DNA of 64,000 nt from a virus, in the IMG/VR virus record IMGVR_UViG_3300029989_000006; one strand, given 5' to 3'. Made by a program: the position numbers and the translations under genes. The notes beneath the pieces are model-generated. The model did no database searches. It saw nothing but the letters and a program-made list of their open reading frames with translations, and was not told the DNA's origin. This document shows positions 3,691 through 64,000 of this stretch, in pieces (position 1 is the stretch's first letter; each line of letters starts with the position of its first letter).

Positions 3691-3698
3691 AAATTAAT

Positions 3699-4376: not shown

Positions 4377-4382
4377 TTTAAT

Positions 4383-4457: not shown

Positions 4458-4482
4458 CAATTATTTATTAAAAAATTATGTT

Positions 4483-4899: not shown

Positions 4900-4905
4900 T
4901 TTTAA

Positions 4906-4980
4906 GGGTCCTTAGCTTAGTTTGGTTAAAGCAAATCCCTCATAAGGATGAGAGCCACAGTTCAAGTCTGTGAGGGCCCA
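4906..4980 (+). tRNA. tRNA with CAT anticodon (Ile2-like or elongator Met)
   Basis: Acceptor gggtcct/agggccc, atcc-CTCATAA-ggat, canonical D and T loops; GGG start resembles Ile2. Confidence 0.88.
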
Positions 4981-5258
4981 CTAATTTTTAAAATAATTAA
5001 TAAAATGGAAAGACTTCAAAAAATTCAAAAAATTGTTATTCAGATGATGTATCTTTTGGATTAGATGTAATAGTTAAAGTTTCTTTTGTTATACCAAAAG
5101 GATACACTTCAATGACTCCAGATGAACTTATTAAGGACTGGTTCCAAAGACATCATTTAACATTAGAAGGATATAGCCATGCTTTTAGAGATGGATCAAT
5201 GGTTGGGAACTCTGAAGAAATTATTGATGTAACAATTATTAATAAAGAATAAAAAATT

Positions 5259-5373
5259 AACTAATTTACAAATAGTATAAATCTGAATTATTATGTAGGT
5301 GAAACACCTTCCTGAGTGCAAGGATAAAAATAATAAAGATAATCATAATTATCTAAGATATTGTAAATTAGTT
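5259..5373 (+). ncRNA. candidate structured RNA closed by a 13-bp stem
   Basis: aactaatttacaa/ttgtaaattagtt; inner aggtg-aaa-cacct and tcct/agga hairpins. Confidence 0.45.
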
Positions 5374-5380
5374 TTAAAAT

Positions 5381-5454
5381 GGGGTCGTAGCTCAGTTGAT
5401 TAGAGTATCACACTTGCAATGTGAATGTCAAGGGTTTGAGTCCCTTCTTCTCCA
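5381..5454 (+). tRNA. tRNA-Ala(TGC)
   Basis: G3:U70, tcaca-CTTGCAA-tgtga, T arm aaggg-TTTGAGT-ccctt, A73. Confidence 0.88.
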
Positions 5455-5473
5455 CAAACTAATAATAAATCAC

Positions 5474-5620
5474 ATGGAAAAAGTAATGATTGCAATAGTT
5501 CTATTATGTGGATTACTCTATATAATAGGAAAAGTTAAAGAGTGCAGTGATAATCCAGAATATGAAGCATGGATTACGCAGGACAAAGCAAAATACCCAG
5601 AATTATATAAAAAGAAATAA
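5474..5620 (+). CDS. small membrane protein
   Basis: ATG 5474; N-terminal hydrophobic helix; TAATG coupling. Confidence 0.55.
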   Translation: MEKVMIAIVLLCGLLYIIGKVKECSDNPEYEAWITQDKAKYPELYKKK

Positions 5621-5835
5621 TGGATGAAATAAAATTAGAAGATTATTGGACAAAGAAGTTTCCTAATGGACATTTGCCTTCTTATGCTAAAGAAATGATG
5701 CTTGAATTTGCATCAGATATTCTTCAATTAGCTACTGAAAATGCCTCAATAAAAACTGAAGTATGTATGGGAGTTGTAATAGATCATAATATTGACAGAG
5801 ATTCTATTCTTAACACAATAAATCAAATAGAATGA
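5620..5835 (+). CDS. hypothetical protein
   Basis: Coupled ORF, ATGA overlap. Confidence 0.6.
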   Translation: MDEIKLEDYWTKKFPNGHLPSYAKEMMLEFASDILQLATENASIKTEVCMGVVIDHNIDRDSILNTINQIE

Positions 5836-6251
5836 AAAATTTATTTGTACCATATGAATTAGCTTTAAAGCTAAAAGAGAAAGGATTTAATGAACCTTGT
5901 TTTGCTGTATATGTGAGACATAAATTACTTATGATTGGTCAACCAAATGATCTTCAAATTTATACTACTGAAGATTTTGAAGATGATATAAAAAGTGAAG
6001 ATATTATTGCTCCTCTTTATCAACAAGTAACAGATTGGTTTAGAGAGGAACATAATATACATATTCATATATCAAGAATGTATTGCTATGTAGGAGATAA
6101 GCCAAGAACCTTCGATGGTTGGTGCGTCTATATTGATAATGGGGTTGAAGATTCTGATTTAGAATGTAATTCCATATTCATTAAAATGTTCTATCCTACT
6201 TATTATGAAGCTTTAATAAAGGCTATTGAAGAAGCATTAAAACTTATTTAA
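5832..6251 (+). CDS. phage hypothetical protein
   Basis: LALKLKEKGF...APLYQQVTDWFRE motifs; paralog at 88..414. Confidence 0.7.
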   Translation: MKNLFVPYELALKLKEKGFNEPCFAVYVRHKLLMIGQPNDLQIYTTEDFEDDIKSEDIIAPLYQQVTDWFREEHNIHIHISRMYCYVGDKPRTFDGWCVYIDNGVEDSDLECNSIFIKMFYPTYYEALIKAIEEALKLI

Positions 6252-6601
6252 TGAAAAAAGGAGTATCACGAATAGTTTTTAAAATAGGAAAATTTGCAAT
6301 AAAAATTCCTAATCATTCATTTAATCACGAACATTTTCTACTTGGATGTTGGGCAAATTGTTCAGAAAGAAACTGGTATAAATGTACTAATAAAATAGCT
6401 GAATATAAAGATAAGATGGCACCTTCTCTATTTTGTTCATGGTTTGGTTTAATTCAAATTCAATATTGGTGTAATCCTATTGATAGAGATTTAACAGATG
6501 AAGAACTTAAATATTTTGATAATATTAGAAATGGAGAACAAAAATCTGAAAACTTTGGATATTATAATAATAGAATGGTTTGTTTAGATTATGCACAATA
6601 G
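6251..6601 (+). CDS. kinase-like fold protein (possible)
   Basis: G.SRIVF..AIKIP start and NFG...LDY end resemble minimal protein-kinase-like motifs. Confidence 0.45.
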   Translation: MKKGVSRIVFKIGKFAIKIPNHSFNHEHFLLGCWANCSERNWYKCTNKIAEYKDKMAPSLFCSWFGLIQIQYWCNPIDRDLTDEELKYFDNIRNGEQKSENFGYYNNRMVCLDYAQ

Positions 6602-22564: not shown

Positions 22565-25153
22565 ATGGGTTTAAGTAGGACTGGGCGTCAAAAACTTGGA
22601 GTAAAGAAATGGATGGAATTTGGTGGAAGAGGCACGTTTGTATGGGCTACTGGAGTTGGAAAAACTCGTGGAGCTATAATGGCAATTAAATCTTTTCTTA
22701 CAAAAAATAAAGGAAAGACTATAGTAGTTATAGTTCCAACTGAAGTTTTAAAACTTCAATGGATTAAAGAACTTGTTAAGTTTGAGTTATTCTTTGATGT
22801 ATCTATAGAGATTATTAATTCTGCTGTTAAAAAAACAGATAAGATTGATTTTATAATACTCGATGAGTGTCACAAATATGCCGGAAACCATTTTTATTCA
22901 ATCTTTACTCAAAGAACTCCGAAATTAATTCTGGGATTATCTGCTACTTTTGAAAGATTAGATGGTGCACAAATTTTATTGGAACAATATTGTCCAGTTT
23001 GCGATGTAATTACTTTACCTGAAGCAATTGCAAATAAATGGGTATCTCCATATAAGGAGTATAAAGTTTTAATAGAAGCACCAGATATTGAATTGTATAG
23101 AGAATATAATCAAAAATTTATCAATTCTTTCAGCTTCTTCAATTTTGATTTTGATACTGCAATGAAATGCTTGACTGATATTGTTTATAGAAGAACTTTT
23201 GCCAAAACAATGGGACTTCCACCAGGAGAGATTGACGCAGTTACTTTCACTTGGGGAAGAATGTTAAAAGCAAGAAAATATTTTGTTATGGATCATCCGA
23301 AAAAGGTGGAGATAACAAGAAAAATTCTTGATTATAGACCTAATAGTAAAGCAATTACATTTTCTCCAACAAAGAAACAGGCAGATGAAATCAAAAGAGG
23401 ATATGTAGTTCATTCTGGTAAAACAAAGAAAAAGAATGCAATAACAATTGAAGAATTTTCTAAGTTAAAAACTGGTGTATTACATGGAGTTAAAGGATTG
23501 AATGAAGGTACTGATATTGATGGTATAAATCTTGCAATTATCTTATGTAATAACTCATCTACTCAGGAAAAAACTCAAAGGGTAAAATTTTAAATTTATC
23601 CCATTATAATTTTTATATTTTTATAAAAACATATAATATACAAAGTCTTTGAATTATTTTGTGTAAATTTATAGTTATTAATTTAACTAATATTTATTAT
23701 GAATACATCAAAACTTTATGTATTAAAAGACCCGGAAACATTAGAAATTCGTTATGTCGGGATAACAATCAGAACTTTACAAAAAAGATTATCAGGACAT
23801 ATTTGCGATGCAAAATGCAGACCTGAACTTAATTACCATAAAATAAATTGGATAAAATCTATTTTAAAAAAGGGATTAAAACCTATTATTGAATTAGTTT
23901 TAGAATATGATTCTTTAGATTTAGCAAAACAAGCAGAAATGGATTATATTGCTAAATATAAACAAGAATATAAATTAACAAATTGTACTATTGGGGGAGA
24001 CCATTTAGGAGAAAGATCTCATTCTCGAGAATCTATACTTAAAAAATCTACAACAAGAGCTATTTGTCAATATAATATTTTTGGAGAATTACTTAGGGAA
24101 TTTGAAATTACTGAAGATGCTGCTAGATTTTTAAATTTATCATCTGCTTCTAAAATAACAATGTGCTGTAAGAAATTAAGACCTCATAGTCATGGTTATA
24201 TATGAAGATATAAAGGAGATGAATTAGGTGATATATCTAATATTGATGTCTTTTCTTTATCGTTTAATAGATTGGTTCAATTTGATTTAGAAGGTAATTA
24301 TATTGCAGATTATGATTCTTATTTAGCTGCATCTCTTATTGTTGGAGATCATTCTAAAGGAGGGAATATTGTTTCTGCATGTAAAGGAATACAAAAACAT
24401 TGTAAAGGATTTCAATGGAAACTAGAACCTAATTTTGAATATTTAGATGAATCATTTCTTTTAATAAATAATGATCCATCAATTAAAAAAAGTCTTATAG
24501 GTAAGTCTGGTAAAAAAGTAAATCAATATGATATAAACAATAATTTTTTAAAAACTTTTAATTCTATTTCAGATGCTTCAATAGAAGTATTAGGTACAAT
24601 TAATGGCAGAAAAAAAATAGTTGAATGTTGTGAAGATTTTGATTTAAAATATAAAAATTATAAATGGCAATACTGCCCACTAGAAGAGTAATTTTCTAGA
24701 AAAAATATTCCTGAATATCGGTGAATCCTTAACGTGTAATGACGATGGTAATACCGAGGCATAGGCTACACTAAAGTGTAGATTCAGCCGTAGAGACTTA
24801 AATGCAGGAACTCCTAGAAATAGGATGAAGATATAGTCCAGACCACAAACAATAAATCAGTAAGAATTCCATGGGAGGTGAGATATGCATGTCAAGTCCT
24901 ACAAGTCTGATGATTGGTGATGAAAATTATAGTGGTACGAGGTCGAGTGATTAGATTTGAAGAAAATAAAGAAGCTGAAATATTTACCTTAGTAATAAAA
25001 GGTACAGTAGAAGAAGCATGGTATAATACTTCCACAAATGGAAAGAATTATATAGAGATTACTGAAGAAGAATTAGATATAATTCTAGCAGGAGGTGAGT
25101 TGGAAAACTTGGAAAGAACTGCAGAAAAAAGTGATGTATTATTTAGGTTATAA
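22565..25153 (+). CDS. SF2 (DExH) helicase, spliced: join(22565..23583,24940..25153)
   Basis: ATGVGKT, DECH, SAT, EGTD; splicing restores motif VI QRVGRVIR. Confidence 0.88.
23584..24939 (+). mobile_element. group I intron in SF2 helicase, endonuclease ORF in P1 loop
   Basis: 5' exon ends in U (agggt) pairing with gccc at 24675-24678; core elements aatatcggtgaa, aataccgag, gtagagact, aagatatagtcc; terminal G. Confidence 0.88.
23699..24691 (+). CDS. intron-encoded GIY-YIG-like homing endonuclease with NUMOD1 repeats (TGA=Trp at 24203)
   Basis: LYVL...RYVG; GYI[TGA]RY aligns with repeats GFQWKL and NYKWQY; 330 aa if TGA read through. Confidence 0.88.
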
Positions 25154-25419: not shown

Positions 25420-26034
25420 ATGCAACATTTTGAACTATCTCTAAATGAAGAGATTAATGTTTACATTAACAGTGGTATGACTCCTACTGAACTTTTTATT
25501 CTAAGGTTGCTATTTTTGGCGGCTGATGGAGATCAACGATATTTAATTAATTATATATCAAATATCTCTGATGGTAAGAAAATCTTAAGACAAGTTTTAG
25601 AATCATTAAAAGTAAAAAAAGTCATAAACTCCACCTTTAACATTCCTAAAGAAGGTGAAGCTTTAAATTTTAAGAATATTCCTTTTAATAAGGTAACTCT
25701 TAAAACATACATTAGGGAATCCAATGAATTAGGTAAAGAATTTTTCGATAATTATCCCATGTTTGTATCAATTAATGGGAAAATGTGTAGTTTAAGAAAT
25801 TTTACAAAAGGAAATTTTCAATCATTAGAACAGTTTTGTATTCATTATTCTGCACAAATTAAAAATTGTGGCGTAACTCATGAACGTATAATGGCTGCAG
25901 TTACCTTTGGAAGGGAAAATAATTTAATCCATTATACTATTTTAGAATTTATTGCCTCTCAGAAATGGATAGAATTAGAACACATAAAAAATTCTGACAA
26001 TATTAATGGCTATAACAACATGGAGTTATTATAA
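25420..26034 (+). CDS. hypothetical protein of replication module (possible initiator/loader)
   Basis: 204 aa ORF upstream of DnaB; EFFDNYP motif. Confidence 0.6.
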   Translation: MQHFELSLNEEINVYINSGMTPTELFILRLLFLAADGDQRYLINYISNISDGKKILRQVLESLKVKKVINSTFNIPKEGEALNFKNIPFNKVTLKTYIRESNELGKEFFDNYPMFVSINGKMCSLRNFTKGNFQSLEQFCIHYSAQIKNCGVTHERIMAAVTFGRENNLIHYTILEFIASQKWIELEHIKNSDNINGYNNMELL

Positions 26035-26036
26035 AT

Positions 26037-27179
26037 ATGAAAAAATTAACAACAGAAGAATTTATAGATAAAGCAATTAAAATACATAGTAGTACTTATG
26101 ATTATTCAAAAGTTGTATATCAAAATACTAAAACTGCAGTTAATATAATTTGTCAGAAACATGGAGAATTTTTACAAAATCCTGTAATACATTTAGGAGG
26201 TTCAGGATGTCCTAAATGTTGAGGAAATCGATGCACATCAAAAGAATCTTTCATAGAAAAAAGTAACATTATACATAAAAACAAATATGACTACTCAAAA
26301 GTGATTTATTTAGGAAGTAAGGAAAAAGTATGTATAATTTGTTTAGAACATGGAGATTTCTGACAAACTACTAATAATCATTTAAAGGGAAAAGGTTGTC
26401 CTGTATGTGGTAGATTAAAATGTGATCTAGCAAGAATTAAATCAAAAGATTCTTTTATTGATGATTGCCACATAATTCATAATTATAAGTATGATTACAC
26501 TTTAGTAAACTATAAGACTAGAAAAGATAAAATTAAAATTGTCTGCCCTATTCATGGAGAGTTTATACAAGAAGCCAGTAGTCATTTAGCAGGACATGGT
26601 TGTCCTTTATGTAGCTGAGAAATTTTATCTGAAGATAGGGCTTTCTCTTGGGAGTTTGTTAAAGAACAGTGTAAGGAAATTCATAAAGGTTTATATAGTT
26701 ATCCTAATCAAGAATATAAAAATAGTAGATCTAAGATTGAAATTATCTGTAAAAATCATGGTGTATTTTTACAATCAATCACGAATCACCTACAGGGACA
26801 AGGTTGCCCTATTTGTAGATCTTCTAAAGGAGAACTATTGATTCACAACTGATTGAAAGAAAATAATATTCCTTTTAGAACTCAATTTGAATTAATTACA
26901 ACTGAAATTGCTAGAAATACTAATTTGATGAAGATTGATTTCTTTGTTAAATTTAATAATAAACAGTATTTTATAGAGTTTGATGGGATTCAGCATTTTC
27001 AATATGTCCCTATTTTTCATAAAGGAGGAATTATTGATTTTGAAAAAGAACAGAGAAGGGATAAAATTTTAAATGAATTTTGTGAATTGCATAAAGATAA
27101 AATAACTTTAGTTAGATTCAATTATAAACAAAATAATGAAGAAATAATTAAAGAATTAAATAAAATATTTATAAATTAA
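26037..27179 (+). CDS. putative free-standing endonuclease: four zinc-finger-like repeats plus C-terminal Vsr/PD-(D/E)xK-like domain (TGA=Trp x4)
   Basis: Repeats YDYS..IIC..HG.F.Q...HL.G.GCP.C; SKGE..I, IDF, IEFDG.QHF; one frame with TGA at 26220, 26361, 26616, 26850; 380 aa. Confidence 0.88.
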
Positions 27180-28258
27180 TGTCGGTAACACAATTATTTG
27201 AAAATATTCAAAAAGGTAGGCGAGGAAATAATATTGGTATTAGTACTGGTTTACCTAAATTAGATTCTATTATATATGGAATACAACGTAAATACTTATA
27301 TGTAATTGCAGCCGATCAAGGTGGAGGTAAGACTTCCTTTGCTCTGGATGTATTTGTTTATAATTTATTTAAAAATAAAGAAAACCATGCTATAAATATC
27401 CTTTATTATTCTTTTGAAATGGCTGGTGATGTATTATATGCAAAACTTTTATCTAGATATATTTATGATACATTTAATAAAGTTATCACCTATGAAGAGA
27501 TTCTCTCTTTGACTTTTCCAATATCTGATGAAAATTTCATTTATATAGAAAAATCTAAAGATTGGTTGTTGGAACTTCAAAAATGTTTTACCATATATGA
27601 TAAGCCTTTATCTCCACCAGCTATATATGCTACTTGTAAAGGATGGCTAAGTAATTTTGGCACATTTGAACAAGTTGGAGACCATAAAGAAAATTATATT
27701 GAACATGATCCAACTTCCTATAAAATAGCTTTAATAGATCATATAAGACTAATTTCTGGCAATGATGCAGTAAAAACTAAAATAGATTTAGTATGTGATT
27801 ATTTTGTATATTTTAGAAATAAGTGTAATATGACTGGTGTTTTAATACAGCAGATTAATAGAAATTCTAAAAGTGTAGAAAGACGTCAGGGAGGATATGA
27901 ACTACTTCAATTAGATGATTTAGCTGATTCTTCGGGACCAGCACAATCCGCAGAAGTAATTATTATGCTTTATTACCCTTACAGAGAAAAAGTATCTTCA
28001 TGTGAAGGTTTTCCTATAAAAAATGTGTTAAAACACAAAGGAAGAATTATTCAAATTAATAAGAATAGATTTGGTAGATCAGATTTAAATATCGGCAGTG
28101 TATTTCATGGAGAGATTGGTATGTTTATTGAGCTTCCAAAACCCTCTGAAATTGCAGATTATGAACCATATCTAAATTTAATGACAACAGATATAGTTAA
28201 ATCAAAAGAAATAATAAGAGAAGATGATAAAGAAGAAAACAATATATTTAAGTTATAA
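27179..28258 (+). CDS. DnaB-like replicative helicase
   Basis: ISTGLPKLD, GGGKT, SFEM, IDHI, QINR, KNRFG. Confidence 0.9.
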   Translation: MSVTQLFENIQKGRRGNNIGISTGLPKLDSIIYGIQRKYLYVIAADQGGGKTSFALDVFVYNLFKNKENHAINILYYSFEMAGDVLYAKLLSRYIYDTFNKVITYEEILSLTFPISDENFIYIEKSKDWLLELQKCFTIYDKPLSPPAIYATCKGWLSNFGTFEQVGDHKENYIEHDPTSYKIALIDHIRLISGNDAVKTKIDLVCDYFVYFRNKCNMTGVLIQQINRNSKSVERRQGGYELLQLDDLADSSGPAQSAEVIIMLYYPYREKVSSCEGFPIKNVLKHKGRIIQINKNRFGRSDLNIGSVFHGEIGMFIELPKPSEIADYEPYLNLMTTDIVKSKEIIREDDKEENNIFKL

Positions 28259-47740: not shown

Positions 47741-48246
47741 AATTAATAATAAAAGAAAAATCAAAATCACAACTTAGGGAAGTTTATGTTATTGAAGTTG
47801 ATTTTATGTTTGGGGACGCAGATGGTAATGAAACTTTAACTTTTGAGTTTTCTGAAGCAGAGTATGCAGATTTATATTTTGCAGATGAAGTGCATTCATT
47901 TATTAAATCTATATTAGAAGCAATTGATATAGATCGTCTAGGAAGAGGTGGTTTTGAATCTTCAAGAGAATGTATAAGATGGTATGGTTTAGGTCAGGAT
48001 TATACATGGAAAAATAATAAAATGGCATATGTTGAAGTACATAATCCAGTTTATCAGTGGAATAGATTTTGTGAAGATGATTATGATATTGAAGAATTTG
48101 AAGAGTTAGAATTTAGATCGGATAGATTTTTATATAGCATCCCAACTTACTCTGATAGATGGTATGGTTCATATGAATCTATTACCATTTCATATTATGA
48201 TGATCAAGGATATAAATATTTAGTAGAAATTGATGAGAAAAATTAG
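47737..48246 (+). CDS. acidic hypothetical protein
   Basis: 169 aa ORF. Confidence 0.65.
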   Translation: MKLIIKEKSKSQLREVYVIEVDFMFGDADGNETLTFEFSEAEYADLYFADEVHSFIKSILEAIDIDRLGRGGFESSRECIRWYGLGQDYTWKNNKMAYVEVHNPVYQWNRFCEDDYDIEEFEELEFRSDRFLYSIPTYSDRWYGSYESITISYYDDQGYKYLVEIDEKN

Positions 48247-49321
48247 TGCAGAAATAATTGCGGACAGTACAATACATGGCCATAGATTGATTACTTATAT
48301 GTTGACTTATCCAAGATTTATACATGCAGAACTGATGACACATCGTGTGTTTTCAAGAAATTCGGCTAGTAGCAGAGCCATACCATTTGAGAAAATGATA
48401 AAATCTGTTGGAGAAGATCCGTTTATTCCTATTGCATGGCAAAAAGATCATAAAGGTATGCAGGGAGCACAATATATTACTTCTCCACAGGGAATAGAAC
48501 ATTGTAATAATTTATGGGAAGTAGCAGCAGAACAAGCTGTTAAATCAGCTAAGATGATAAGAATAATGGATGGAGAAATTGAGTATCCCGGTACAATTGA
48601 GGAAGTATTTTCTGATTTTGAAGATGAGGATGAGATTTTAATTACAAAACAACTTTGTAATCGTCTTTTAGAACCGTTTTTATGGCACACTGTAATAGTA
48701 ACATCAACTGAATTTTCAAATTTCTTTGAATTAAGATGTCCTAAATATATTCAACATACTATAAACAAAGTAAACACTTTTTACAGTAAAAAAGATTATG
48801 AAAATAAGTATGGTAAACAAGATATATCTGAATTAGATTGGATTAAATCTAGTCAATCAGGAGCTGAAATACATATTCAAGCATTAGCGGAAGCTATGTG
48901 GAATGCTAAAAATGAATCTACTCCTAAAGAATTAAAAGAAGGTGAATGGCATATTCCTTTTGGAGATAAAATATCTGGAGATGTTACAAAATGGTTTTCA
49001 ACTATTGAAGATCAAGCATATTGGTTAGGAAAAGATATGACTAAGTTATTTCTTAAAGTAGCTGTTGCACGATGTGCTAGATTATCTTACATGACATTTG
49101 ATGGAGAAATAGATTATAAAAAAGATATTCAACTCCATGATACACTGTTAGCTAGTAAACACGCAAGCCCATTTGAACATGTAAGTCGAGGTTTAACTGA
49201 AGAAGAATATAACACATTAGGTAAAATGATATTAGATCCAGTTAAAGGTTATGTTTTTGAAAAAGGATGGGCTGATAATTTTAGAGGATTTATATCTTAT
49301 AGAAGAATTCTAAATTTCTAA
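48233..49321 (+). CDS. thyX: flavin-dependent thymidylate synthase
   Basis: ELMTHRVFSRNSASSRAIP, NRLLEPF, NFFELR, HASPFEH. Confidence 0.9.
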   Translation: MRKISAEIIADSTIHGHRLITYMLTYPRFIHAELMTHRVFSRNSASSRAIPFEKMIKSVGEDPFIPIAWQKDHKGMQGAQYITSPQGIEHCNNLWEVAAEQAVKSAKMIRIMDGEIEYPGTIEEVFSDFEDEDEILITKQLCNRLLEPFLWHTVIVTSTEFSNFFELRCPKYIQHTINKVNTFYSKKDYENKYGKQDISELDWIKSSQSGAEIHIQALAEAMWNAKNESTPKELKEGEWHIPFGDKISGDVTKWFSTIEDQAYWLGKDMTKLFLKVAVARCARLSYMTFDGEIDYKKDIQLHDTLLASKHASPFEHVSRGLTEEEYNTLGKMILDPVKGYVFEKGWADNFRGFISYRRILNF

Positions 49322-49373: not shown

Positions 49374-50105
49374 ATGAAGAATATGTCAGGAATTTATAAA
49401 ATTTTAAATAAATCCAATAACAAATGTTATATTGGTAGTACAGTTAATTTCGGTGATAGAAAAAATTTACATTTTTCTAAATTAAAACGAGGAAAACATC
49501 ATTCAATTATTCTGCAAAGAGCATATGATAAATATGAAATAGATAGTTTTGAATTTATTATTTTAGAAGAGTGTGAAAATGAAAAACTTCTAGAAAGAGA
49601 ACAATGATATTTTGATAATTATAAACCAGAATATAATGTTGCAAAAGTTGCAGGAAATACACTAGGTGTTGCCTCTACAAGACGTATAGCTATAGTACAA
49701 TATGACTTAGATGGAAATCAAATAAAAATTTGGGATTGTTTAGAAGATATTAAAAAAGAATTAAATTTGGCTGCATCCTCAAAGATATCTGAATGTTGTA
49801 AATTAAAACGAAATAAAATTTATGGCTTTGTTTGAAGATATTTAGAGGATAATCCTGGATTTTCATTAAGTACAGTTAGAAAAGGTAAATGTATTGCTGA
49901 GATAGATTCTTGTGGAAATATTATTAATGTATGAGAAAGAATTATAGATTGTGCAAATGATATAGGAACATCTTCTGCAGCAATTTGTGATACTTTATCA
50001 GAAAAATCCCGAAGAAAAACAATATATAATAGAATGTTTAAAAGAATAGAAAAAGAAGAGTTAGAACAATATCGTTATTTAATAGAAAATAAAAATGATT
50101 GATAA
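49374..50105 (+). CDS. free-standing GIY-YIG homing endonuclease with NUMOD1 (TGA=Trp)
   Basis: GIYKI..YIGS; REQ[TGA]YFD..PEYN; GFV[TGA]RY; in-frame TGA at 49605, 49833, 49932, 50100, then TAA; 243 aa. Confidence 0.88.
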
Positions 50106-50610
50106 TATAACTTTAGAAAGAATAAAATTACTTCATCCTAAAATTAGGAATGAAGTACATGATATATATGTAAATGAAGTTGTTCCTGCTTTAACAGGTA
50201 AATCAACTTGTAGATTTGCATACACATTAAGAACATTTGCTGAACAAGATTTATTGTATGCACAAGGTAGAACCAAATTATTTGATGCAAGTGGAAATCG
50301 ATTAGGTATCGTAACTAATGCTTCTGGTGGAAAATCTATCCATAATTATGGATTAGCTTTTGATATTGTATTGTTAGAAAATGCAATTGCTTCATGGGAT
50401 ATAGTAAAAGATTTTGATGGTGATCATGTTCCAGATTGGATGGAAGTTATTAATATCTTTAAAAATAAAGGATATGAATGGGGTGGAGACTGGAAAAGTT
50501 TAAAAGATACACCACATTTACAAAAGACTTTTGGATTAAACTGGGCACAATGTTCAGCTATATATAAAAGAAAAGGTGGATTAGATGCTGATGGATATAT
50601 TATTTTTTAA
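50095..50610 (+). CDS. M15 family L-Ala-D-Glu peptidase (endolysin)
   Basis: RTFAEQ..LYAQGR, SIHNYGLAFD, WGGDW..D.PHLQ. Confidence 0.9.
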   Translation: MIDNITLERIKLLHPKIRNEVHDIYVNEVVPALTGKSTCRFAYTLRTFAEQDLLYAQGRTKLFDASGNRLGIVTNASGGKSIHNYGLAFDIVLLENAIASWDIVKDFDGDHVPDWMEVINIFKNKGYEWGGDWKSLKDTPHLQKTFGLNWAQCSAIYKRKGGLDADGYIIF

Positions 50611-51978: not shown

Positions 51979-52686
51979 ATGGAAAATTCAAATTTTGCTT
52001 CATATACACCGTACATTGATGATCTTTCATCTGATGAAAAATTAAAAGAATATTATACTCAGCATCCTCATTTTTCTAATGAGTATTTAGATAGATATTT
52101 AGCACAACTAACTCCTGAACCTAAAACTATGATTGTAACAACTCCTAAAGATGAAAAACATTACTCCACAAGTGATATTATAGGAAATAAAGAATATTTT
52201 GCTAAATTATTAGGAACTAAATCTAATTATGTTTCTCCAGTTAAAAATGAAATTACTGATGAAATTAGTAAAATGGATGTACCTGATGAAGATAAAGAAT
52301 ATCTAGTAAAATTAGCAGGAAGAGAAAGTAATTATAATCCAACTGTCAAGAATAAATTTGGGTACTATGGATTATATCAATTTGGTGATAGTGCTCTAAA
52401 AGATATTGGTGAGACTAGACAATCTTTTACAGATAGTGCAACACAGAATAATGGTGCACTAAAATTAGCTAAGTTAAATGAATCTCGTTTACAAAATGTA
52501 ATGAGTGAATTTGTAGGTAAGAAATTTAGGGGATTAAATATCACAAGAAATGGAATTTTAGCTGCAGCACATTTATTAGGTGCAGGAAAAGTGCAGAAAT
52601 GGTTTAGTGAAGAAAAACCTGATGCAAAAGATTATCATGATGGTTTTGGAACAAAAATAGAAGAATATTTAAATCTTTATTCATAA
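51979..52686 (+). CDS. lysozyme-like/lytic transglycosylase domain protein
   Basis: RESNYNP...GYYGLYQF, AAAHLLG motifs. Confidence 0.75.
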   Translation: MENSNFASYTPYIDDLSSDEKLKEYYTQHPHFSNEYLDRYLAQLTPEPKTMIVTTPKDEKHYSTSDIIGNKEYFAKLLGTKSNYVSPVKNEITDEISKMDVPDEDKEYLVKLAGRESNYNPTVKNKFGYYGLYQFGDSALKDIGETRQSFTDSATQNNGALKLAKLNESRLQNVMSEFVGKKFRGLNITRNGILAAAHLLGAGKVQKWFSEEKPDAKDYHDGFGTKIEEYLNLYS

Positions 52687-52694
52687 TAAAACAG

Positions 52695-52734
52695 AAATAC
52701 CCACAGTACAATCGTACTGTGGGTATTTTTTTTT
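52695..52734. terminator. terminator between convergent gene blocks (probably bidirectional)
   Basis: 15-bp perfect stem aaatacccacagtac-AATC-gtactgtgggtattt, T tract on +. Confidence 0.88.
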
Positions 52735-55700
52735 ATTCTGATGGATGCATAAACTCAAACATCTTAAGATCTTTATTCATTAATTGTTCAAATGTTTTAT
52801 TTCCTCATAATACACTGTGTACATCTGTTGCAGTTTTAGTTCCTCAAGCTCAAAAAACTGGCTCAGTTTTTAAAGCTCCTAAAGTATTATTTCATAAATT
52901 TCCTTCACTTAATACTTTTTTATTTACGGATGCCATAAACTCTACTGTTCTTCCATCAATTCCATCAGTACCATTTTCTGCAATTCAGCCATCATAAATA
53001 GCCTTCATCATACCAAACAGTAAAACCATTAATAATGAATCTACCATTGCAAAACCTACTCTCTCATTTCTATGATCTTTATTTTTTGCAATTTCTCCTC
53101 AGTTTCCTTTTATAACATCTTGCATTAGATATCCTACAGAGTATAATAACCCTTCTTGTGGATGTCCTACTCATGCTAACATTGGATCTCCAGTATTTTC
53201 AGTAGTTGCTTTAAATCCAATAATTTCATCAGGATTTGTTTGACTATAAACAGGTTCTCTTCATAATAATTGACCTGTTTCCTCATCAGTTACTTGTTGA
53301 TGACTTCCCATCATACTTTTATCTGCAGAAACTGGTTTACCAAATCACATATTCATCTTACCTGGCCAGAATTGAAGTAATTGTAATCAGATTATTCCAT
53401 ACCAAGTATTATGTCACTCGGCTTGACTATCTTTATCATAATATCCATAAACTGTATCAGTAAAAGATTTAAATCCAGTTCTTTCTTTTTCAGAATAAGC
53501 TTGATCTAATAAATCAGTTGCTTCATCAAGAATTGGATTGTTTCCTTTAGCTAATTCTGTATTTCTTTCACCTAAAATTATTGTATAAAGATTTCTTTGT
53601 TCATTATATTTTAGATTATTCTTTGCAGGAATATATTGTCCATCAGCATTTTTATATTTTTCTCTATTTTGGAAATAATATTCAAATCGCTTATCTTGAG
53701 TTGGATCATAGTGTATATAACCTTTATCGTCTAAAGTATGTGCATAAAAACTTCCATCATGAATCATTTTTGCAATGAATAGAGATAATCTATTATAATA
53801 ATCAGGAATAGTATTACAAGCATACATCCATTTACTTAATCCTAACATAGCACCTCTTCTATTTGTCTGCATTTTTCTCGGTAAAGAATTAACATCCATA
53901 TTTGCAAATCCATAATAAAGATTTATTCCATCCATTAAATTTCATTTTTTAGACATTTTATTATCAACTGCTAACATAATCTTCATTGCTTCTGCTAAAT
54001 CTTTAATATTAAATGGTTTTTTTCCACCATAAATATTAAGGGCAGCCAATCCTACATTTTTATACAATCCAAATGTTAATTCCTTTGCCATTAAAGCAGG
54101 ACGAAATCCTAACATTGCAGCAGTTGCAATGGTTTTCCCTGATCGAACTAATCTAATTGCATCACTTGCCTCTGGATCAATAATAGGTTCATCAAATAAT
54201 CCTAATTTTATTCTATTAGTAATGTATTCTAATTGTTTAGATATGTTTTCTTTATTTTTTCCTGCAAGTAATTTCATTCATCAAACATATGATGTAATAT
54301 TTGGAAGAATTGCGTCAACATTTGCTTTTCTTATACTACTGAAAGCAACTCTATGAGCTATTGTATCTAAATCCAATTCATAATATCCTGGGGAATTTTC
54401 ATTAATTAGTCTAACTTTCATTTCATCTGATTGCATAGAATAAATATCATACATTTCATTGAAACCTAATTGTGTTTCTTTAATTCTATTTAAATCATTT
54501 TCTGAAAATTCTCTTGGATCTAAATAGTCCTTAGTTTCATCAAGTCATTTAGATACATCTTGTCATAATCCTGCTAATCCACTTTTTAAAATTCTATCAT
54601 TTCTATTAATTTGTTGAGAACGCATTATTGGCATTTTGAAATAATCTCCAGAAATAATACTCTTTATAATTATACCAGAAGTATCAGTTTTAGTAATAGA
54701 TTCTATACTTGTTAAATCAATTTTACCTCATAATTTTTCTGGAATATGTAGTCTATATTTTTTAATTTCAAATAACATTTGCTTAGAATATTCTTGTTCA
54801 GCCTGTGTTAGAGTCTTATCAGAATATGGATCTTTTAATGACCAACTATTAGAAACTTCACTGCCATCATGTTCTCACATATTTTTATTAAGAGATCTAA
54901 CATTACCAATTCAATTTTGTGAAAGATTTGAGTAGTTTATTTTTTTAAAAAATTCATATGTAAATGCAGCTATTGTAGTAGATTGTTTATACATTTTATG
55001 TCTAATACTAGAATTTGCTCCTGTAATCATTTTATTAATATTCTGTAAATCTACAGAACCTATACGATCAGGAGTATTAGTTTTCAAACCACCAATAATT
55101 CCTAAAATTCTTCTACCAGTTTTATCATAATCTGCTTGTTCATCTGAATAAAAAGCTGCTAATAAACTTTTAAAATCAGAGAAACCAATAGCAAAATTTC
55201 TCATTTGCATAAAATCTCCCTCTGGGACATCTCCTGATTTAGCAACAATTAATGAAGATAGAATTGCAAAAACATATTCAAGTCTGTTCTTAAAATCAAT
55301 TTCAGAACCAAAAGTTTTTTTCTTTAATTCTGGAAAAGCATCAGCAAGTTCTCTATGAATTTGTTTCAATTTATACAATTCCATTCCTTGATAATCTTCA
55401 CCATATTTTAAAACAATTTTTTCAACTGATGTAGACTCTAAATTAAGAACTGCCTCTTGCATTTCTGTAACAGCTCTATCTGTAAGATTAAGAAAATTAG
55501 ATAAATTTATTTTTGGAGTTATTCCTTTTGAAGTTAATAAATCAAAATATTGTTTTTGTATTTTATTTACATCAAAATATCTTGCCTGAGATCCCTCAAC
55601 ATTTAATGGTATTAAATTCTTAATTTTATTGAAATCTAAATCTAATTCATCATAATAATGATGAAAAAATAATAACATTTTTAAATATTCAACCTCAGCA

Positions 55701-57334
55701 AATGTTGTGTTTTTATCATATTTTGCATCACCATTTAATACAGTCAAACTAAATAAAACTAATTTATTACTTCTTTTACTTTTTAATAAGATAAATCCTA
55801 AAGAATCAAGTGCCATATTATTTTCAACAACTTTATAATCACCATTTAAATACGGAGATAGTAAGGCATTAACATGAAGGGTTTGGTGGTCATTAGCCAT
55901 CTTAAGAGGTAAATCCGATTTATTTAGAATTGCCTCAGAAATTTTATCCTTTAATTGCGTAACTCTGTAATAGTTATTTTCCGATAATTTCTTAGTATAT
56001 GCGTAAACTCTTTCTTTAAATTTTACCAGTTTTTCAGCATCTGATAAACCTGGTGCCCTAAATCTAAAATTTTCATCTTTAATTAAACCAAGTTCAAAAT
56101 CATCAATTTTACTAATAAATTCTAATTTATTATTTTTTATTGCATCTGCAATTATTTTTTCTGGATCATTTTCATCCTTAGATGTTTTGATCTTATATAA
56201 TGGGAATAAAAAAGCTAAATCTGCTAAAAATCTATCATTCTTTTTAGTATCATATTCTATATTAAACTTTTCAGGAATAATTAACTGAGCAGTTCTTGTT
56301 ATAGTACCAGTAGATTGTAAACCAGTATTTGCAGCAGATAATGATACAATTTTTCCTGCGCTAAAATTAATTGGATTAAATTTATTTAAAGTTGAACGTT
56401 CTCCAATACTGATTGGAATAACATTTATAGAAATAATATTTTTAGCATTAATATGTTGTGCTAATAACTGTCTTTGAAGTGCTAATTCTCAATCTGTTGT
56501 TAATTTCTTTGTTGAATCCCAGTCTGGATAATCACGTTTTGATAATTTTAATTCAAAAATATGAACATTTCCATCCTCATCAACTACAACAAAATCTAAT
56601 TTTCCTTTTAAACCAATGGCTCCACCATCTATAGTATCTAATATAACATTAGTTAATATAGTTCCTTTACTATTTAGAGTTGAATAAATTTTATATAATA
56701 CATCTTTAATTTTATCTTTTCAATCCTGACTTTCTCCACCTAAATGCCATTTATTCTTTTCAATTAAATCATCAATATTCTGTTCAACACTAATATTAAA
56801 TTCACCTTGAGAAAATTTAAGACTACTTAAAATTGAATGTAATCCAATTCCAAAATCTCTTAATCCTTTTTCTATTTCAATAACATCTTGAATATCCTTT
56901 GTATATTGTATGATTTTATTACTTATATCTGGATTATCAGCATATTGAGAAATTAGTTCTTTTAAACTTCAATCAATATGTGGATTAACTCCATCAGAAA
57001 TTAATTTCCTTTTAACTTCTGATAGTATTCTATTTTCTTCAATATATTCAGGAGCTAATCTTTGTTTAGAAATTCCTAAAGTTCCTAAAAACTCTTCCTG
57101 TCTAGTAGTAATAAATTGTGAAATATCCATTTTACTTGGATCCATTGATATAGTTTTTCCTCTTGGAAATTGATCTTTAATTTTATCTACTATACTATTT
57201 ACAATTTCATCAGAACTAAAAATTTTTGTATTTTTTAGTTCTGATGTATTTTTATAATAATATTCAGTTAATCCTGTTAAAGTTACAGGATGTTTAAAAT
57301 TATCCTTTAATAAGTAAGTACAATTTATTGACAT
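52733..57334 (-). CDS. giant virion cargo protein with PD-(D/E)xK nuclease-like domain and C-terminal hydrophobic helix (TGA=Trp), about 1533 aa
   Basis: Fragments 56969-57334, 54911-55900, 53942-54277, 53414-53935 share one frame and each ends at TGA; TAA at 52733-52735; motifs GIGLH and GKLDFVVVDEDGNVHIFELK. Confidence 0.82.
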
Positions 57335-60300
57335 TGTATTTCTAAATTATTGTTTTTAATTTGTTCTGACATTCATTCACGGAAATTGGTTTCAAATAAA
57401 ATTAAACTTTCATTTCCTATTTCATGAGAGAGTCTGGGAAATCTTGATTCCATAGTAGTATTTAATATAGAAAATATATTTGAATCTTCTGTTATTGGTT
57501 CTAATTCTAATTTTATTAAAGCACTATTTATTGCATTGCTAAATGATTTATAATCAATAATATTTTCAATTCCAAGATTAATTTTATTAGTTAATTTATT
57601 AATTAATTCTTCTTCTAATTCAGATAAATCTTCTGTTTTAGAATTAGAAAGTAATTTATAATTTTGTAATACTTCTTCATATGTATTTTTACTTAAATCA
57701 TTGTATTTTAATGCAATAAAAAATAAATGTAAATACTCATGAATAATATTTTGTTTACCAGAATTAAGATTTGCAGTATTTATAACCAATCTTTGTCCTT
57801 GTTCATTAGATTCTATTCAAGCCTGTTTAGATTGAAGATCAGTATTATATACATGATCTACATCAATATTAAAAATTGTTGAAAATCTTTTAGTTAAATC
57901 TGAAAGTATAATTCTATTTCTAGCAATAATATCCTCAGGAGAATTATTATTTTCACCAATTTTAAGATCTAATTTTTCTAATTTTGATCCAATTTTACGA
58001 TTTCCTTTCTTTGCATAAATTCACATTATATCATTAGAATTTTTAGGAATAGTTTTAATTACTGTTAGAATTTTACCCCTGTGTGAAAATGTATTAAATT
58101 CTATAGTAATGTTATCAGCTGAAGCAGAAGTAATTTGATATAATTTGTTTTGAGAAACCATATTTCCATCAACTGTCTTAGCTAATACAATATACGCTCC
58201 AGGTTGTAATAATTCTCTTTTTTGTTCAGTTTTTTCCTGAAAATTAGAATTATACAATGCTTTATTAAATCTTTGATAATAACCTCTTTCTAAAGTTTTT
58301 ACATATAATCCAGTTCCGTTAATATTTCGTTTAAAATTAATTGCATTAATTAAATCCTCAGTAACATTAGTGTATCCTTCATAGTCTTTTGGATTTTTAT
58401 TATATATTTCTTCTGCAACAAGTGTTCCTATATTTAATTGTCCACTTGGCATTAACAAAGCTGTCTGAAAATCTAAATTACTTGGGATAAAACATAACAT
58501 TGAAGTTTTATCTTCTCCTTCATATAAAGTCTGTAAAAATAAATTATTATATTCTATATTTTCAATAGCAGAACTTCTACTAATATCACGTGTAGTAATA
58601 AAATTAGTTCGTTTTGATAAATCATTATCTACTAAATATTCATTTATTGGCATTAAAGTTTTTTTATCAAAATTAATCATTGCTAATAAATTTTTATCTT
58701 TATTTAGTATTTGATAAATTTGATTATATTCAACTCCTTCATTAGTTTGCTTTGGTATTATAACAAAGTCTCCTTCTGAACTTAATTCAAAATTATCAAA
58801 ACTTGAATAAGAAAATTTAGCTGGAGATTGATCTTTTGCAATTCTATTTGCAAATTCTGACATTTCTTGAAATACTTCTCTAGTAACCTGTGGTTTTTTT
58901 CTATAAACATTTACTACAGAATCTCTACTAATTGCTTCAGAATAATATTTATCATTTCTTTTTACTAATATATAAATTGATTTTTCATCATCACTTATTC
59001 CAAGAACTTTATTATATCTTCTTTTACCTTTTTCATCAATATGAAGTATATAATCAGATGAATCAATAGGAACTTGAGGATTTCTTCTTAATTCTATTGC
59101 ATCATAATTTTTTAATGTCTGAACTTTTTCTTCCCATGTTTGGTCAGTAAATTCATCTTCAAATGCATTTTTATGTGTTATTAGAGTTGTAATTCTATCT
59201 AAATTAACATATGGATTTTCTAATAATACATCTTGTTTTTCACCAGTATAAACTTTATTAAGCAATAATTTAGAAGGAGAAACATCTTTAATAGTATTTC
59301 AATAAGTTTTTACCTCAGTTTGTTTAGCCCCATTCTTTATTTTTTCTTTTCTAGTTTCACTTTGGACTCTACCACCTCTTACTGCGCTAGATAAAACTAA
59401 TGATTTAGGTAAATATTCACCCTTATTTGCTTTTATAACAATTGAATCATTTGAATTTATTTCATTTGCTTCAGTAGTATTTAGTATTTTAGTTCCTTTA
59501 GCTAATTTTCTAAATTTTATTTCTCCTAAATATATTCTGTCTGTGGCAATTTTAATTTTTCCTTCACTATTATAAAATCCTCTAATTTTTATTCTATCAT
59601 CCTCTATATCCACATCAACAGGAACAATATATCTTGTATAATCCTCTTTTTTAGGAATTAATATTAAATCTTGACCAAGACTTAGATTGGATTTTATAAA
59701 ATTAACCATAGATTCTAAATCTGTAAAATCTTTAGAAGTTTCTTGTGGTGAATAATAATCATCCTTTTTTTCTAGATACTTCTGAATCTTTATTCCCTTT
59801 TGAGTTAAAGTAGATTTTAAATAATCATCAGATATTTTACCATATTCCTCTGATGCTTCTTTATTTTTATCTACTCAATTTGTTTCTCCTAAATTAAAAA
59901 TTTGTTTTAAAAGTAAATCAAATTGTGTATTTAAAAGGAATTTTGAACCAGTTATTATATTTACTAAATCAGCGTAAATGGCATCTCTATTAGGATTTTG
60001 AGATAAACTGTCTAAAATTGGATTCTGAAATTCTAAATTTTCATTTTCTCCAATAAATTTTCCAATAAAAAATTCTTCTGGAGTATATTCTTTAGTTATG
60101 CCATATTTTAATAAAACATTTGATAAATTTTCTTTAGACATTAAAGATCCCTGATGTTTAAAAATTCCATAGAACATAGAGAGATAATTATTTTTATCAT
60201 AAACTATTGTTGGATCTTCTGTTCCATTATTTATTACAGTAGCTTGATTTTGATCAAATTGTCCTGAAATAAATATTTTCTTATGTTTTAAAGGTCCTTT

Positions 60301-60855
60301 ATAAAAGTTATTTAAAATAATAAATAATGCATTATCTGTTTGTGCTTCTATAGTTGTATCACTAAAACTGTTTAAATAATCCTCTAATTTATTTAATTCA
60401 TCTATTGGAGCAGTAGTATTTAATACTCCAGTAATGTTTAGATTATTAAAATAAGTATCAATTTTATTTTCTGAAGCAAGATTTAATAATTCCTGAAAAT
60501 TAATCTTCTGATATTTAGTTCCATTAATTTTTTTATAATCAAAGGCAATATCATAATTAAGATTCTTTCATATTGCATTTTGTAATGAATTATTAGTTAC
60601 CTTCTTACTAATAAGTTCATTTAATTTAGTAATAACCTCGGAATCTTTAGTGTTTCTAATTATGTTATTTATTTCATTTACTGTTAAACCTGTATGTAAT
60701 GAATTTAAATAGGCAAGCAAATTACTAGTACCTTCTTCTTTAGAAGTTGGGAGTAATTCTAGAAATTTTTGATCCTGTAAAGATATTTGGTTTACAGTGG
60801 AGGGGATTCTTAGTTCCCCCCCATTTGGTAATTTTACATAAAAATAGCACTTCAT
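57325..60855 (-). CDS. giant virion cargo protein with zincin-like HExxH motif (TGA=Trp), about 1176 aa
   Basis: Five ORF fragments in one frame, each ending at TGA; ATG in TAATG overlap; IIHEYLH near C-terminus; TAA at 57325. Confidence 0.82.
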
Positions 60856-63800
60856 TATATACAATTATAATTAATTATTAATCCCTTTAAGTTAATTAGG
60901 TTTTTTAATTTATCTACATTTCTAGTTAACTCTAAATTTGCGTTATTTACTATATCCATTTCAGTATTAATAACATAATCTCCATTTACTAATGATAAAT
61001 TATTATTAACTCCAGTTGTTAATTTATTTCTAACATTTAAAGTTAAAAATAATAAAGTATTTAATTTACTTCTATAGATTTCTATTCTAATTGCTGGATT
61101 TTCAATTGGTAATAAATCAAGTAGTTTTGCTTCTCCTCTATCAATTGCAACTGAATATTTTATATATTCTCCTGCAATATTATTATTATTCTTTATATAA
61201 TCCTCAAACATTGGAGTTAATCTCTTATCTCCATAAGAATCATTATTTACAATTAAATTATAAACATAAAGTAAATCTTTTCACTGCATATTAACTCCTC
61301 TTACATTTGGTATTTTTACACACTTTTGATCAATTTCATTAAATTGATTTAATAATATCTGAAATTTTTCCAAATTAATAGTTGAATTTAAACTGCTAAT
61401 AGGAAAAGTTGGAGTAACCTGTGTTGTGGAAATATTAAAGCTATTTTTAACAGTAGATAATCTTAATATATTACCTAAATCTGTATTTTGTTCATTTTTT
61501 AAAATTTGTAATCCTAATACTTCTACCATTCTTTTAAAATTAGCAATACCAGTATCAGTTTTTAAATCAATTATATAATCAGGATCAGTAACTTTTACTG
61601 TTACAACTTTTCCTTGGTCAAATACTGTAGGATTTACAAGTAAAGCTCCTGAAGTTGAAATCTTAGCTAAATCATCTCTGTATAAAGTTATTGAGTTTAT
61701 ACCTGCTAATCTTAATCAATCCTGAACTTTAAATACTAATGCTTCAGCTTTTTCTCCATTTTTTAATCAAGAGGCAACAGCTAATTTATCATATAAATTA
61801 ATTATTCTTCTAATCATAACATCATCAATGTTGATAGAAAATGCAGGATTACCTCTTCAAGTTTTAATTGCTCCTTTATTATATTGTTGGATATTTAGAG
61901 AATTTGTTCTGATAATATCACGCATTTGCGAAAATATAAAATTATACTTTTTTGACGATATTAAAAGTATATTATTAATAATACCAACACCATCAATCAT
62001 AGCTTTGAAATGTGGTGAATTTTCTATCACATCAAAAATATTTATTGTATTTTTTATAAGATTGTAATAGCTTGTGGTTATTTTTCTATAATTTTCATTC
62101 TTTGGATGCATATAATATCTAAAGTCAAACTGCCCTCCCAATAAACTTACATTTTTAGTTTCTTCAACACCAGTTGAATTAATAAAAGATATCTCTACAT
62201 TATTTGCTAAATTAAATATATCTCTAACATAACCTCTATCCTTTTCTCCTTCATGCAGAAGTGGATTTTGTCTAATGACTCTATTAATTAATGAAATTCT
62301 AAATTGTTCAGATGTATCCCAAGTTGAACTATCTCTTAATTTTATTGCATCCTGTCCAAATATGGCACCCTCTCTATTTCATAGAATTTGATCAAATCCA
62401 GTTAAGAATCTATTTAATTCTATAGAATTAGCAGCAATTTTCTGATTAACTTTTAACATACTTGCTAAAATCTTAAATTCTTGTGCTCCTTCATAAATAT
62501 CATGAAATGTTTCTAGATCTTTAAATTGCTGTAATATAGATGCCTCTAATTGTTTCTTTTCATTATCAAATTGTGTTGAAATTAATATAGTTTCTTTCTC
62601 AGTTTTTGGAATTATTTGAGAATATTTTTTCTCAAGTTCTTCAATTAATTTTGTTTTATCATTATTTAGCATTGTTTCATAAGATACTAATAATTCATTA
62701 ATATATAATTTCTTTGGATCTTTAAAATAATTTGTATTTAATCCTTTAATTAGATATTGAACAATTGGAGAATTCATATATTTTACTACTTCATCAATTG
62801 AAATTCCTAATGAAGTTAGGTATAAATGGGTTCCTAATAATTCAGTTATTCCATTAATTTTTGCCATAACTAACTCCTTTGCATTATCAGTTGCACCTGA
62901 TATAATATTTGAAACAACTACTGCAGCTCTATTGTTAAGAACATCCAGCTGTTTATTTAATTTAGTTAATCCAAAAGCATCTTCTAATTCCTTAGTCATT
63001 TCTTTAGATATATTAATATCTGCAATTGAGGAGATATTATATGATTTACCATTAATATTAAAGGTTTTCAAGAAAGCTTTATTACTTAATCTTAAATCTT
63101 CTGGTTGAGTTTCTAAATGTTTATATCAATTATTGTAATAATTAGTTAATGCTAAAAATACTTTTAATCCATTTGCACCAATACCTACATCAGCCTTACC
63201 AACTGCTGCCTCTTTCTGTTGTTTATAGAAACTTAACATATCTCAATTTGATAAATTTCTATAACTTGCATCCATTCCTGCATTTTTTGCAGCATCATGA
63301 AGTGATTCTACATCTACTGGTATAGAAGAAAGAAATTGACTACTTGGGGCAGAAATAACTTGTCTAATTCTTGCAATAACAGAATTTTTTACTGCATTTT
63401 TAGAATAAATAAATTTCTTAAATGAATTATGTTTATTAACTAAATTTAAAACTAAGTTTGCATATGGATTTATATTATTTTTAATAACAATAACATCTAC
63501 TTGATTAAGTTTTCTTAAGATATTTCCAATAATTTTTGCTTCATCTAAAGATAAATTAATATCTGAAAGATCTTCAATATCACTTGGAATATTAGTTATT
63601 TTTGAAAAATCTAATATATCTTGATCTAGATTAATACCATTATCATTAAATGTGTATTTTTTATATGAAGGTAATGGAAATTTCTCTAATTCATTTAACT
63701 CCTCAACTGTTGAATAATTTGATAAATTAGTTCAAGTATCATATTGACCACTTTTATTAAATCCATATCCCATGATATATGCTTTATCAATATCGAAGTC

Positions 63801-64000
63801 AGATCCTTGAATTCAAATCTGTCATATTGATACATAGGCATCATTTGATTCTGTACTAAAATATCCAATATTCTTCATCTCCATTGCAGATTGTAAAGAT
63901 TGTGCTGGAATTCTAGAAACAATAAACTGATGTGATTTCTGCCATGAAGCATAAACTCTTTCTGATAAAGTATCTAATACTCCCTCTTTGTTATTAATAA
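60855..64000 (-). CDS. virion RNA polymerase catalytic subunit (crAss-like), C-terminal part; TGA=Trp; starts outside window
   Basis: RIPAQ and QGSDFDIDK catalytic motif at about 63783-63809, in frame with all downstream fragments to TAA at 60855. Confidence 0.9.

Follow-up and report, generated by a model that had tools for sequence, protein, structure and literature searches.

Giant frames and their in-frame TGA codons

The stretch analyzed here, referred to as the window, is 64,000 nucleotides long and corresponds to bases 102614-166613 of the 172,188-bp IMG/VR virus record IMGVR_UViG_3300029989_000006, which was rated complete by CheckV. Positions are those of the window unless marked as genome positions. 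The genes are arranged in two arms that converge within the window, a plus-strand arm (~genome 64,000-155,300; in-window part 1-52686) and a minus-strand arm, of which 52733-64000 was the main subject of this study. A preliminary description of the window had proposed that two genetic codes are used in this phage, with TGA read as tryptophan (Trp) in the late genes of the minus strand and as a stop in the early and middle genes of the plus strand. The features that bear on this proposal are compiled in Table 1.

Under translation table 11, 13 open reading frame (ORF) fragments of 60 aa or more are found on the minus strand of 52733-64000, 12 of which are terminated by TGA. With table 4, the pieces join into three continuous, overlapping frames, each of which is closed by TAA (52733, 57325, and 60855), and the preliminary description was reproduced in this respect. 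In-frame TAA or TAG codons between the fragments, which were named there as evidence to the contrary, were looked for and none was found in the 3756 codons of the three genes. Since TAA and TAG together occur off-frame at a rate of 8.8% per codon, a frame of 1533 codons would stay open by chance with a probability of ~1e-61; for all three frames the value is ~1e-150. The tight gene overlaps reported earlier were also found: genes 1 and 2 share a 10-nt overlap (ATGTCAATAA), and gene 2 and the RNA polymerase-like gene meet in a stop/start overlap, TAATG. Because of this overlap, the ATG at 60855 is the likelier start of gene 2, the alternative being a TTG at 60864 (frame 57325-60864). The RNA polymerase-like gene continues beyond the window and in full length (genome 163468-171969) encodes 2833 aa with 21 TGA. 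It is confirmed that the three giant frames are open only with TGA as a sense codon.

On the minus arm, 187 in-frame TGA are spread across 54 genes. Coding density was compared under the two tables: table 4 raised that of the minus-arm block to 95% (54 genes), from 70% (103 fragments) with table 11, and that of the plus arm only from 81% to 84%. Annotated with table 11, the 54 late genes fall into ~100 fragments, and the terminase, the portal, and the giant virion proteins go unrecognized. Therefore, the code must be recognized to read this phage at all.

The reading of TGA as Trp in the recoded late genes is shown by alignments to relatives. With the C-terminal half of the gene 1 protein (P0001) as the query, 70 mostly full-length homologs were obtained, in which Trp was more frequent than any other residue at 13 of the 22 TGA positions, against a background Trp frequency of 1.3%; phenylalanine (Phe) or tyrosine (Tyr) was common at most of the remaining columns. 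Because the database proteins may be table 4 calls themselves, the DNA of two homologs was examined. One of them (P0009) is open under table 11 and contains 0 TGA and 22 TGG, and the other (P0008) is translatable only with TGA as Trp (21 TGA, 2 TGG). In a codon-by-codon comparison with P0009, 12 of the 22 TGA of gene 1 fall on TGG and none on a glycine (Gly) codon. For the other two giant genes the comparison was made with the relative L009 (ENA ERZ4223863 NODE_25, 163 kb): 3/5 aligned TGA of gene 2 fall on TGG, as do 3/15 of the RNA polymerase gene, with 6/15 on Tyr or Phe codons. The gene for the terminase large subunit (TerL), outside the window, was compared with that of a standard-code GenBank relative, and 2/9 TGA were on TGG and 3/9 on aromatic codons. 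The earlier expectation that these positions align with Trp in homologs was borne out: Trp and other aromatic residues dominate, and no TGA aligns with Gly. An IMG/VR search for related loci with P0001 gave no relative.

Two of these TGA lie beside the putative catalytic motif of the RNA polymerase-like protein, and both codons could be located, as had been claimed, upstream of GSDFDIDK; with both codons left untranslated, the region is A Y V S I TGA Q I TGA I Q G S D F D I D K. In L009, the codon at 63822-63824 aligns with TGG (Trp) and that at 63813-63815 with TTT (Phe), and Trp is the family consensus in both columns. The DxDxD motif is conserved in 67 relatives, as DFDID in 51 of them, and D204, D206, and D208 are invariant within GSDxDxDK. 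A 30-sequence profile of the 500 aa around the motif was aligned by hhalign with the catalytic region of gp66 of Cellulophaga phage phi14:2 (NC_021806) with a probability of 93% (E 2.9e-7, 60 columns). The phi14:2 protein is annotated as 'Catalytic RNA polymerase subunit' and was detected in the virion by mass spectrometry, and its gene lies at the same end of the arm that carries TerL, the portal, and the major capsid protein (MCP); its structure has reportedly been published. The 2833-aa protein is best read as a virion-RNA-polymerase-like protein related to gp66.

Other searches were less informative. PHROGs and Pfam assigned no family to the three giant window proteins. Their relatives are many (~1540 aa and ~3000 aa), and many gene 1 homologs carry a PD-(D/E)XK nuclease domain (PF12705). 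Neither phmmer nor a profile search of the RNA polymerase region against PDB sequences gave anything relevant. A gp66-type virion RNA polymerase has two double-psi beta-barrel domains in one chain; an AlphaFold2 (AF2) model of the 500 aa around DFDID had a predicted local distance difference test (pLDDT) score below 50 over the motif region, and the matches to this model from Foldseek (pdb) and VIA-align (pdb_via_wide) were all helical and non-specific. Another giant late gene, the fourth (genome 296-8995, L002), lies on the other side of the record ends from that of the RNA polymerase and encodes 2899 aa with 10 TGA; its superfamily 1 (SF1)-helicase-like matches (AAA_30 and AAA_12) are weak and below the Pfam cut-off.

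Based on TerL (phrog_6681, terminase large subunit; 28-30% identical to many Crassvirales), the portal (phrog_6547, portal protein), and the MCP (PF23898 Crass_capsid, 46 bits against a 27-bit cut-off), the phage is classified as crAss-like. The late identity of the block rests on these matches and on the alignment of the DFDID region with the virion protein gp66, and the most fitting interpretation of the block is the crAss 'transcription block', whose giant proteins are made late and packaged. The 172-kb size, the number of tRNA genes, and PolA point indirectly to the Zeta-like type, as do relatives among which standard, TAG, and TGA codes occur side by side (cf. PMC7886860).

Table 1. Positions of the features discussed in the text (window positions unless marked as genome).
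Feature	Position	Strand	Remarks
Late giant gene 1	52733-57334	-	1533 aa; 22 in-frame TGA, 6 TGG; TAA stop
Late giant gene 2	57325-60855	-	~1176 aa from ATG at 60855; 6 in-frame TGA; TAA stop
RNA polymerase-like giant gene, C-terminal 1047 codons	60855-64000	-	crosses window edge; 10 TGA in window
DFDID, DxDxD catalytic motif	63786-63800	-	
Two in-frame TGA near the motif	63822-63824 and 63813-63815	-	4 and 7 codons upstream of the motif
TGA-poor islands inside the recoded late arm (L003, L004)	genome 26169-31621 and 32676-38598		outside window
Suppressor tRNA(UCA)	genome 60008-60081	-	outside window; ARAGORN, Rfam tRNA model
tRNA-Trp (CCA), ordinary	4383-4458	+	ARAGORN
GIY-YIG homing endonuclease	49374-50105	+	phrog_314, E 4e-26, match residues 1-227
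HNH homing endonuclease	26037-27179	+	4 in-frame TGA; phrog_559, E 5.5e-65, match residues 67-377
HNH homing endonuclease	genome 85638-86216	+	internal TGA
HNH homing endonuclease	genome 77275-77745	+	internal TGA
Gene of unknown function	genome 100661-101125	+	internal TGA
Ambiguous internal-TGA case	23699-24691	+	
Candidate ThyX	48230-49321	+	recognized by sequence motif only
Peptidase_M15_4 lysin-like gene	50095-50610	+	Trp as TGG only; open under table 11
SLT peptidoglycan-hydrolase-like gene	51979-52686	+	TGA-free
Hairpin, 15-17 bp, perfect	52693-52730		T-run on plus strand only; minus-strand reading also flagged by scan

Distribution of TGA in the genome and in its relatives

The proposal of one code for late and another for early genes holds in its core, as the late giant genes use TGA for Trp and the replication genes use it as a stop; however, the boundary is not the strand switch, and exceptions occur on both arms. 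The initial 11 kb of the minus arm (from genome 63870 to 52748), which carry genes for homing endonucleases, a DnaD-like protein, PhoH, an exonuclease, and tRNA(UCA), contain 6 TGA vs 30 TGG. Heavy recoding starts at TerL (9 TGA), includes the portal (4 TGA), and runs around the record ends into the window; in the recoded late blocks, 75-81% of the Trp codons are TGA. The code boundary is inside the minus arm, at TerL, and the well-supported TGA-bearing genes of this arm all lie downstream of the tRNA(UCA) gene, which is placed close to the head of the arm and surrounded by TGA-free genes. Two islands in the recoded late arm are poor in TGA. In the capsid island, the MCP gene has 0 TGA and 7 TGG and the whole cluster 1 TGA vs 14 TGG, and the lectin-fibre island, with four Laminin_G_3 lectin-like proteins, has 0 TGA vs 36 TGG.

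The plus arm in the window encodes PolA, helicases, a primase, an exonuclease, ribonucleotide reductase, and a ligase. Outside the homing-endonuclease genes, this arm has 0 in-frame TGA vs 329 TGG. TGA terminates 28 of its genes, 10 of them in ATGA 4-nt overlaps with the next start and 1 in a TGATG overlap; the overlaps listed in the preliminary description, ATGA at the stops 861, 5835, 16527, 16796, 44014, and 47740 and TGATG at 37815, are all present. The accompanying statement that plus-strand genes use TGG for Trp is correct for the bulk of the arm but not for its homing endonucleases. In all, internal TGA was found in 4 homing-endonuclease genes with good support, in 1 gene without a known function, and in 1 further, ambiguous case. 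The GIY-YIG gene has TGA at codons 78, 154, and 187 and a TGA followed by a stop at its end. The HNH gene in the window lies between a 204-aa ORF without a family and a DnaB-like C-terminal ORF (27179-28258; whole region 25420-28258), and a helicase gene may be split here by an intron or mobile element.

In the genome region 64000-155330, the next in-frame TAA or TAG follows after a median of 5 codons at TGA stops and of 9 codons at TAA or TAG stops (one-sided Mann-Whitney, p = 0.017), and late read-through may be caught by the nearby TAA or TAG as backup stops. No useful difference was seen between the bases that follow sense and stop TGA, and homologs of the TGA-terminated early genes were absent from the related locus of 24 kb. 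Between the converging arms there is a 46-nt gap that contains the hairpin at 52693-52730, which is likely a two-way terminator.

Among the relatives, the clade mixes standard, TAG, and TGA codes. MT835470 uses the standard code in TerL and MCP, and the TAG-recoded MT835492 has 4 TAG inside MCP. The RNA polymerase gene of the mostly standard-code relative L009, of which 6.4 kb is visible (1-6401), has a frame with exactly three TGA (711, 2265, and 2991) and no TAA or TAG, and two adjacent giant genes have 0 TGA and 32 TGG. One of these TGA coincides in the alignment with a TGA of the gene studied here (W1072). L009 looks like an early stage of recoding that is confined to one gene. Five GTDB contigs (L035-L039) of 4-158 kb, three of them 78-158 kb, encode TerL proteins with 41-43% identity to that of the phage studied here; their TerL genes are standard or TAG-recoded (three with TAG inside TerL) and never TGA-recoded. 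The metagenome-assembled genomes (MAGs) to which they were assigned are labeled Firmicutes, Tenericutes, Anaeroplasmataceae, Clostridium, and Methanobacteriaceae, and these labels almost certainly reflect mis-binned low-GC phage DNA.

Decoding machinery and the proposed switch

A scan of the whole genome with ARAGORN gave 26 tRNA genes, 11 of them in the plus arm of the window. The search for a tRNA with a UCA anticodon, suggested by the preliminary description, was successful: the tRNA(UCA) scores 56.2 bits against a threshold of 29 bits in the Rfam tRNA model and has a 7-bp acceptor stem and the discriminator G73. G73 is the bacterial Trp determinant. The tRNA(UCA) is not a close or recent copy of the tRNA-Trp(CCA) of the phage, and it is the only suppressor tRNA found in the genome. 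The release-factor gene that had also been suggested was not detected: neither the release-factor domain PF00472 nor the class Ib synthetase PF00579, for tryptophanyl-tRNA synthetase (TrpRS), matched anywhere in the genome, and the same searches matched in control genomes. When IMG/VR was scanned with the 19-nt anticodon arm of the tRNA(UCA), 19 matches were obtained, all of which were due to chance and none of which was a tRNA. A further tRNA-like gene with an abnormal two-base anticodon, 'ga', was called by ARAGORN at genome 72917-72988, adjoining tRNA-His.

Taken together, the late virion genes use TGA for Trp by means of the phage tRNA(UCA), the replication arm follows the standard code, and accumulation of the suppressor would switch from one to the other; we assign this reading a probability of about 85%. 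Because the plus arm has no internal TGA and uses TGA as a stop, it could be translated by an unmodified standard-code host. Early in infection TGA would terminate, and the host ribosomes would begin with the genes that lack TGA. Charged presumably by the TrpRS of the host, the phage tRNA(UCA) would then accumulate, after which the TGA-bearing late genes and the recoded homing endonucleases would be translated in full, and the giant proteins, the virion RNA polymerase among them, would be made and packaged. The timed switch and the standard-code host are what we infer.

Several points weigh against this reading. Both its timing and the charging with Trp are inferred. The recoding follows lateness only imperfectly, as the MCP cluster (1 TGA to 14 TGG) and the lectin cluster (0 to 36) are both on the late arm, and two lysin-like genes are TGA-free on the plus arm, of which the Peptidase_M15_4 gene is not gated by recoding. 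Without a phage release factor, the host release factor 2 (RF2) should compete at each TGA, and the efficient completion of proteins with 21-23 TGA is left unexplained.

In an alternative that we consider possible but rather unlikely, suppression always competes with the host RF2, each TGA costs yield, and TGA density sets dosage. TGA would be avoided in high-copy proteins such as the capsid and tolerated, or put to use, in low-copy proteins and selfish homing endonucleases. No release-factor gene is present in the genome, and the MCP gene, with TGG at all 7 Trp codons, lies next to late blocks with 75-81% TGA, which is a weak signal in the same direction; the shorter distance to backup stops is another weak hint that read-through matters. 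However, the giants with 21-23 TGA are conserved whole, which requires efficient suppression at each site. Avoidance in the capsid is not general, since the MCP of a TAG-recoded relative contains 4 TAG, and the TGA-free lectin cluster could be a recent acquisition. Such attenuation is also compatible with a switch by the accumulating suppressor and does not exclude it. TGA use could be a per-gene translation dial beyond a flag for lateness, with the genes of the most abundant head proteins and the lectin genes TGA-free, low-copy cargo and homing endonucleases TGA-rich, and early genes that end at TGA provided with backup stops close by, although this idea is tentative and rather unlikely. If it is true, and selection instead of history is responsible, the recoding of stop codons would fix the proportions in which proteins are made and keep mobile elements in check.

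Much less probable is a reading without any temporal switch, in which TGA means Trp throughout infection, in a code 4 host or with the suppressor present from the start, and the TGA-free state of the plus arm is historical. The bins labeled Tenericutes or Anaeroplasmataceae that contain related contigs would agree with such a host, but the bin labels are inconsistent (Firmicutes, Clostridium, and Methanobacteriaceae also occur) and the TerL genes there are never TGA-recoded. Set against the TGA share of the late blocks, the plus-arm ratio of 0 TGA to 329 TGG departs strongly from neutrality, TGA is the stop of 28 genes on that arm, frequently within an ATGA overlap with the next start, and a code 4 host would make a phage tRNA(UCA) redundant. 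Where the hosts of crAss-like phages are known, they are Bacteroidota with the standard code (PMC7886860; PMC12386605). Hardly any credence can be given to the last alternative, that TGA encodes another residue (Gly as in code 25, cysteine (Cys), selenocysteine (Sec), or arginine (Arg)) or is a true stop in decayed, fragmented genes: the tRNAscan isotype published for the tRNA(UCA) of a related phage is ambiguous between Trp and Arg (PMC12386605), but no TGA column favors Gly, Cys, or Arg, Trp or aromatic residues dominate, and decay is at odds with 187 TGA sites, with the absence of TAA and TAG from 3756 codons, and with abundant full-length homologs. The Gly, Sec, and Cys readings and the pseudogene reading were ruled out by the alignments.

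Comparison with known recoded phages

Stop-codon reassignment restricted to late genes is established in crAss-like phages, as the preliminary description correctly stated. It was reported that 243 crAss-like phages use TAG for glutamine (Gln) or TGA for Trp, mostly in late genes only, and the same study described changes of code among Zeta-group phages and stops next to the DxDxD motif (Yutin et al., 2021; PMC7886860). A timed code switch was proposed by Borges et al. (bioRxiv 10.1101/2021.08.26.457843), who also describe an early gene with a recoded endonuclease in its intron. Lera, a Zeta phage of 179.6 kb, has 26 tRNA genes, including tRNA(UCA), and TGA in TerL, RNA polymerase, and structural genes (PMC12386605). 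The metaproteomic validation of recoding concerns TAG-to-Gln, not TGA-to-Trp (PMC9523058).

The phage studied here resembles the Zeta-group phages and Lera in size (~170-180 kb) and in its 26 tRNA genes including tRNA(UCA). As in the Zeta group, TGA occurs in TerL, the structural genes, and the giant genes of the RNA polymerase block, the replication genes follow the standard code, close relatives vary between the standard code, TAG, and TGA, and a DxDxD giant ends the late arm. It differs in that the nearest GenBank phage records are only 25% (RNA polymerase protein) and 45% (TerL) identical and, compared with Lera, which has UCA and CUA suppressors, in having UCA only.

With the model of Borges et al., which was reportedly published in Nat Microbiol in 2022, it shares standard-code early genes, recoded structural genes, and a phage suppressor tRNA, and with their TGA-recoded Agate phages a recoded homing endonuclease inserted in the early region. 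Unlike in that model, the Peptidase_M15_4 and SLT genes are TGA-free on the standard-code arm, and therefore lysis gating, which is at the center of the model, is not evident for them; the 'code change module' of release factor 1 (RF1) and TrpRS is also missing here. The likeness to phi14:2 gp66 consists of the aligned catalytic region (RIPxQ...GSDFDIDK) and of a giant gene that ends the TerL-portal-MCP arm, whereas the alignment covers 60 columns only and phi14:2 is not recoded.

The late TGA-to-Trp recoding described here is an ordinary instance of a known phenomenon and matches the reports of Yutin et al. (2021), Borges et al. (2021/22), and the 2025 study of Lera. It establishes no new principle and adds one more clean example of a phage with two decoding regimes, together with a relative that appears to be at an early stage of recoding. 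The boundary at TerL, the TGA-free late clusters, and the plus arm with its recoded homing endonucleases and unrecoded lysin-like genes refine the known picture only slightly.

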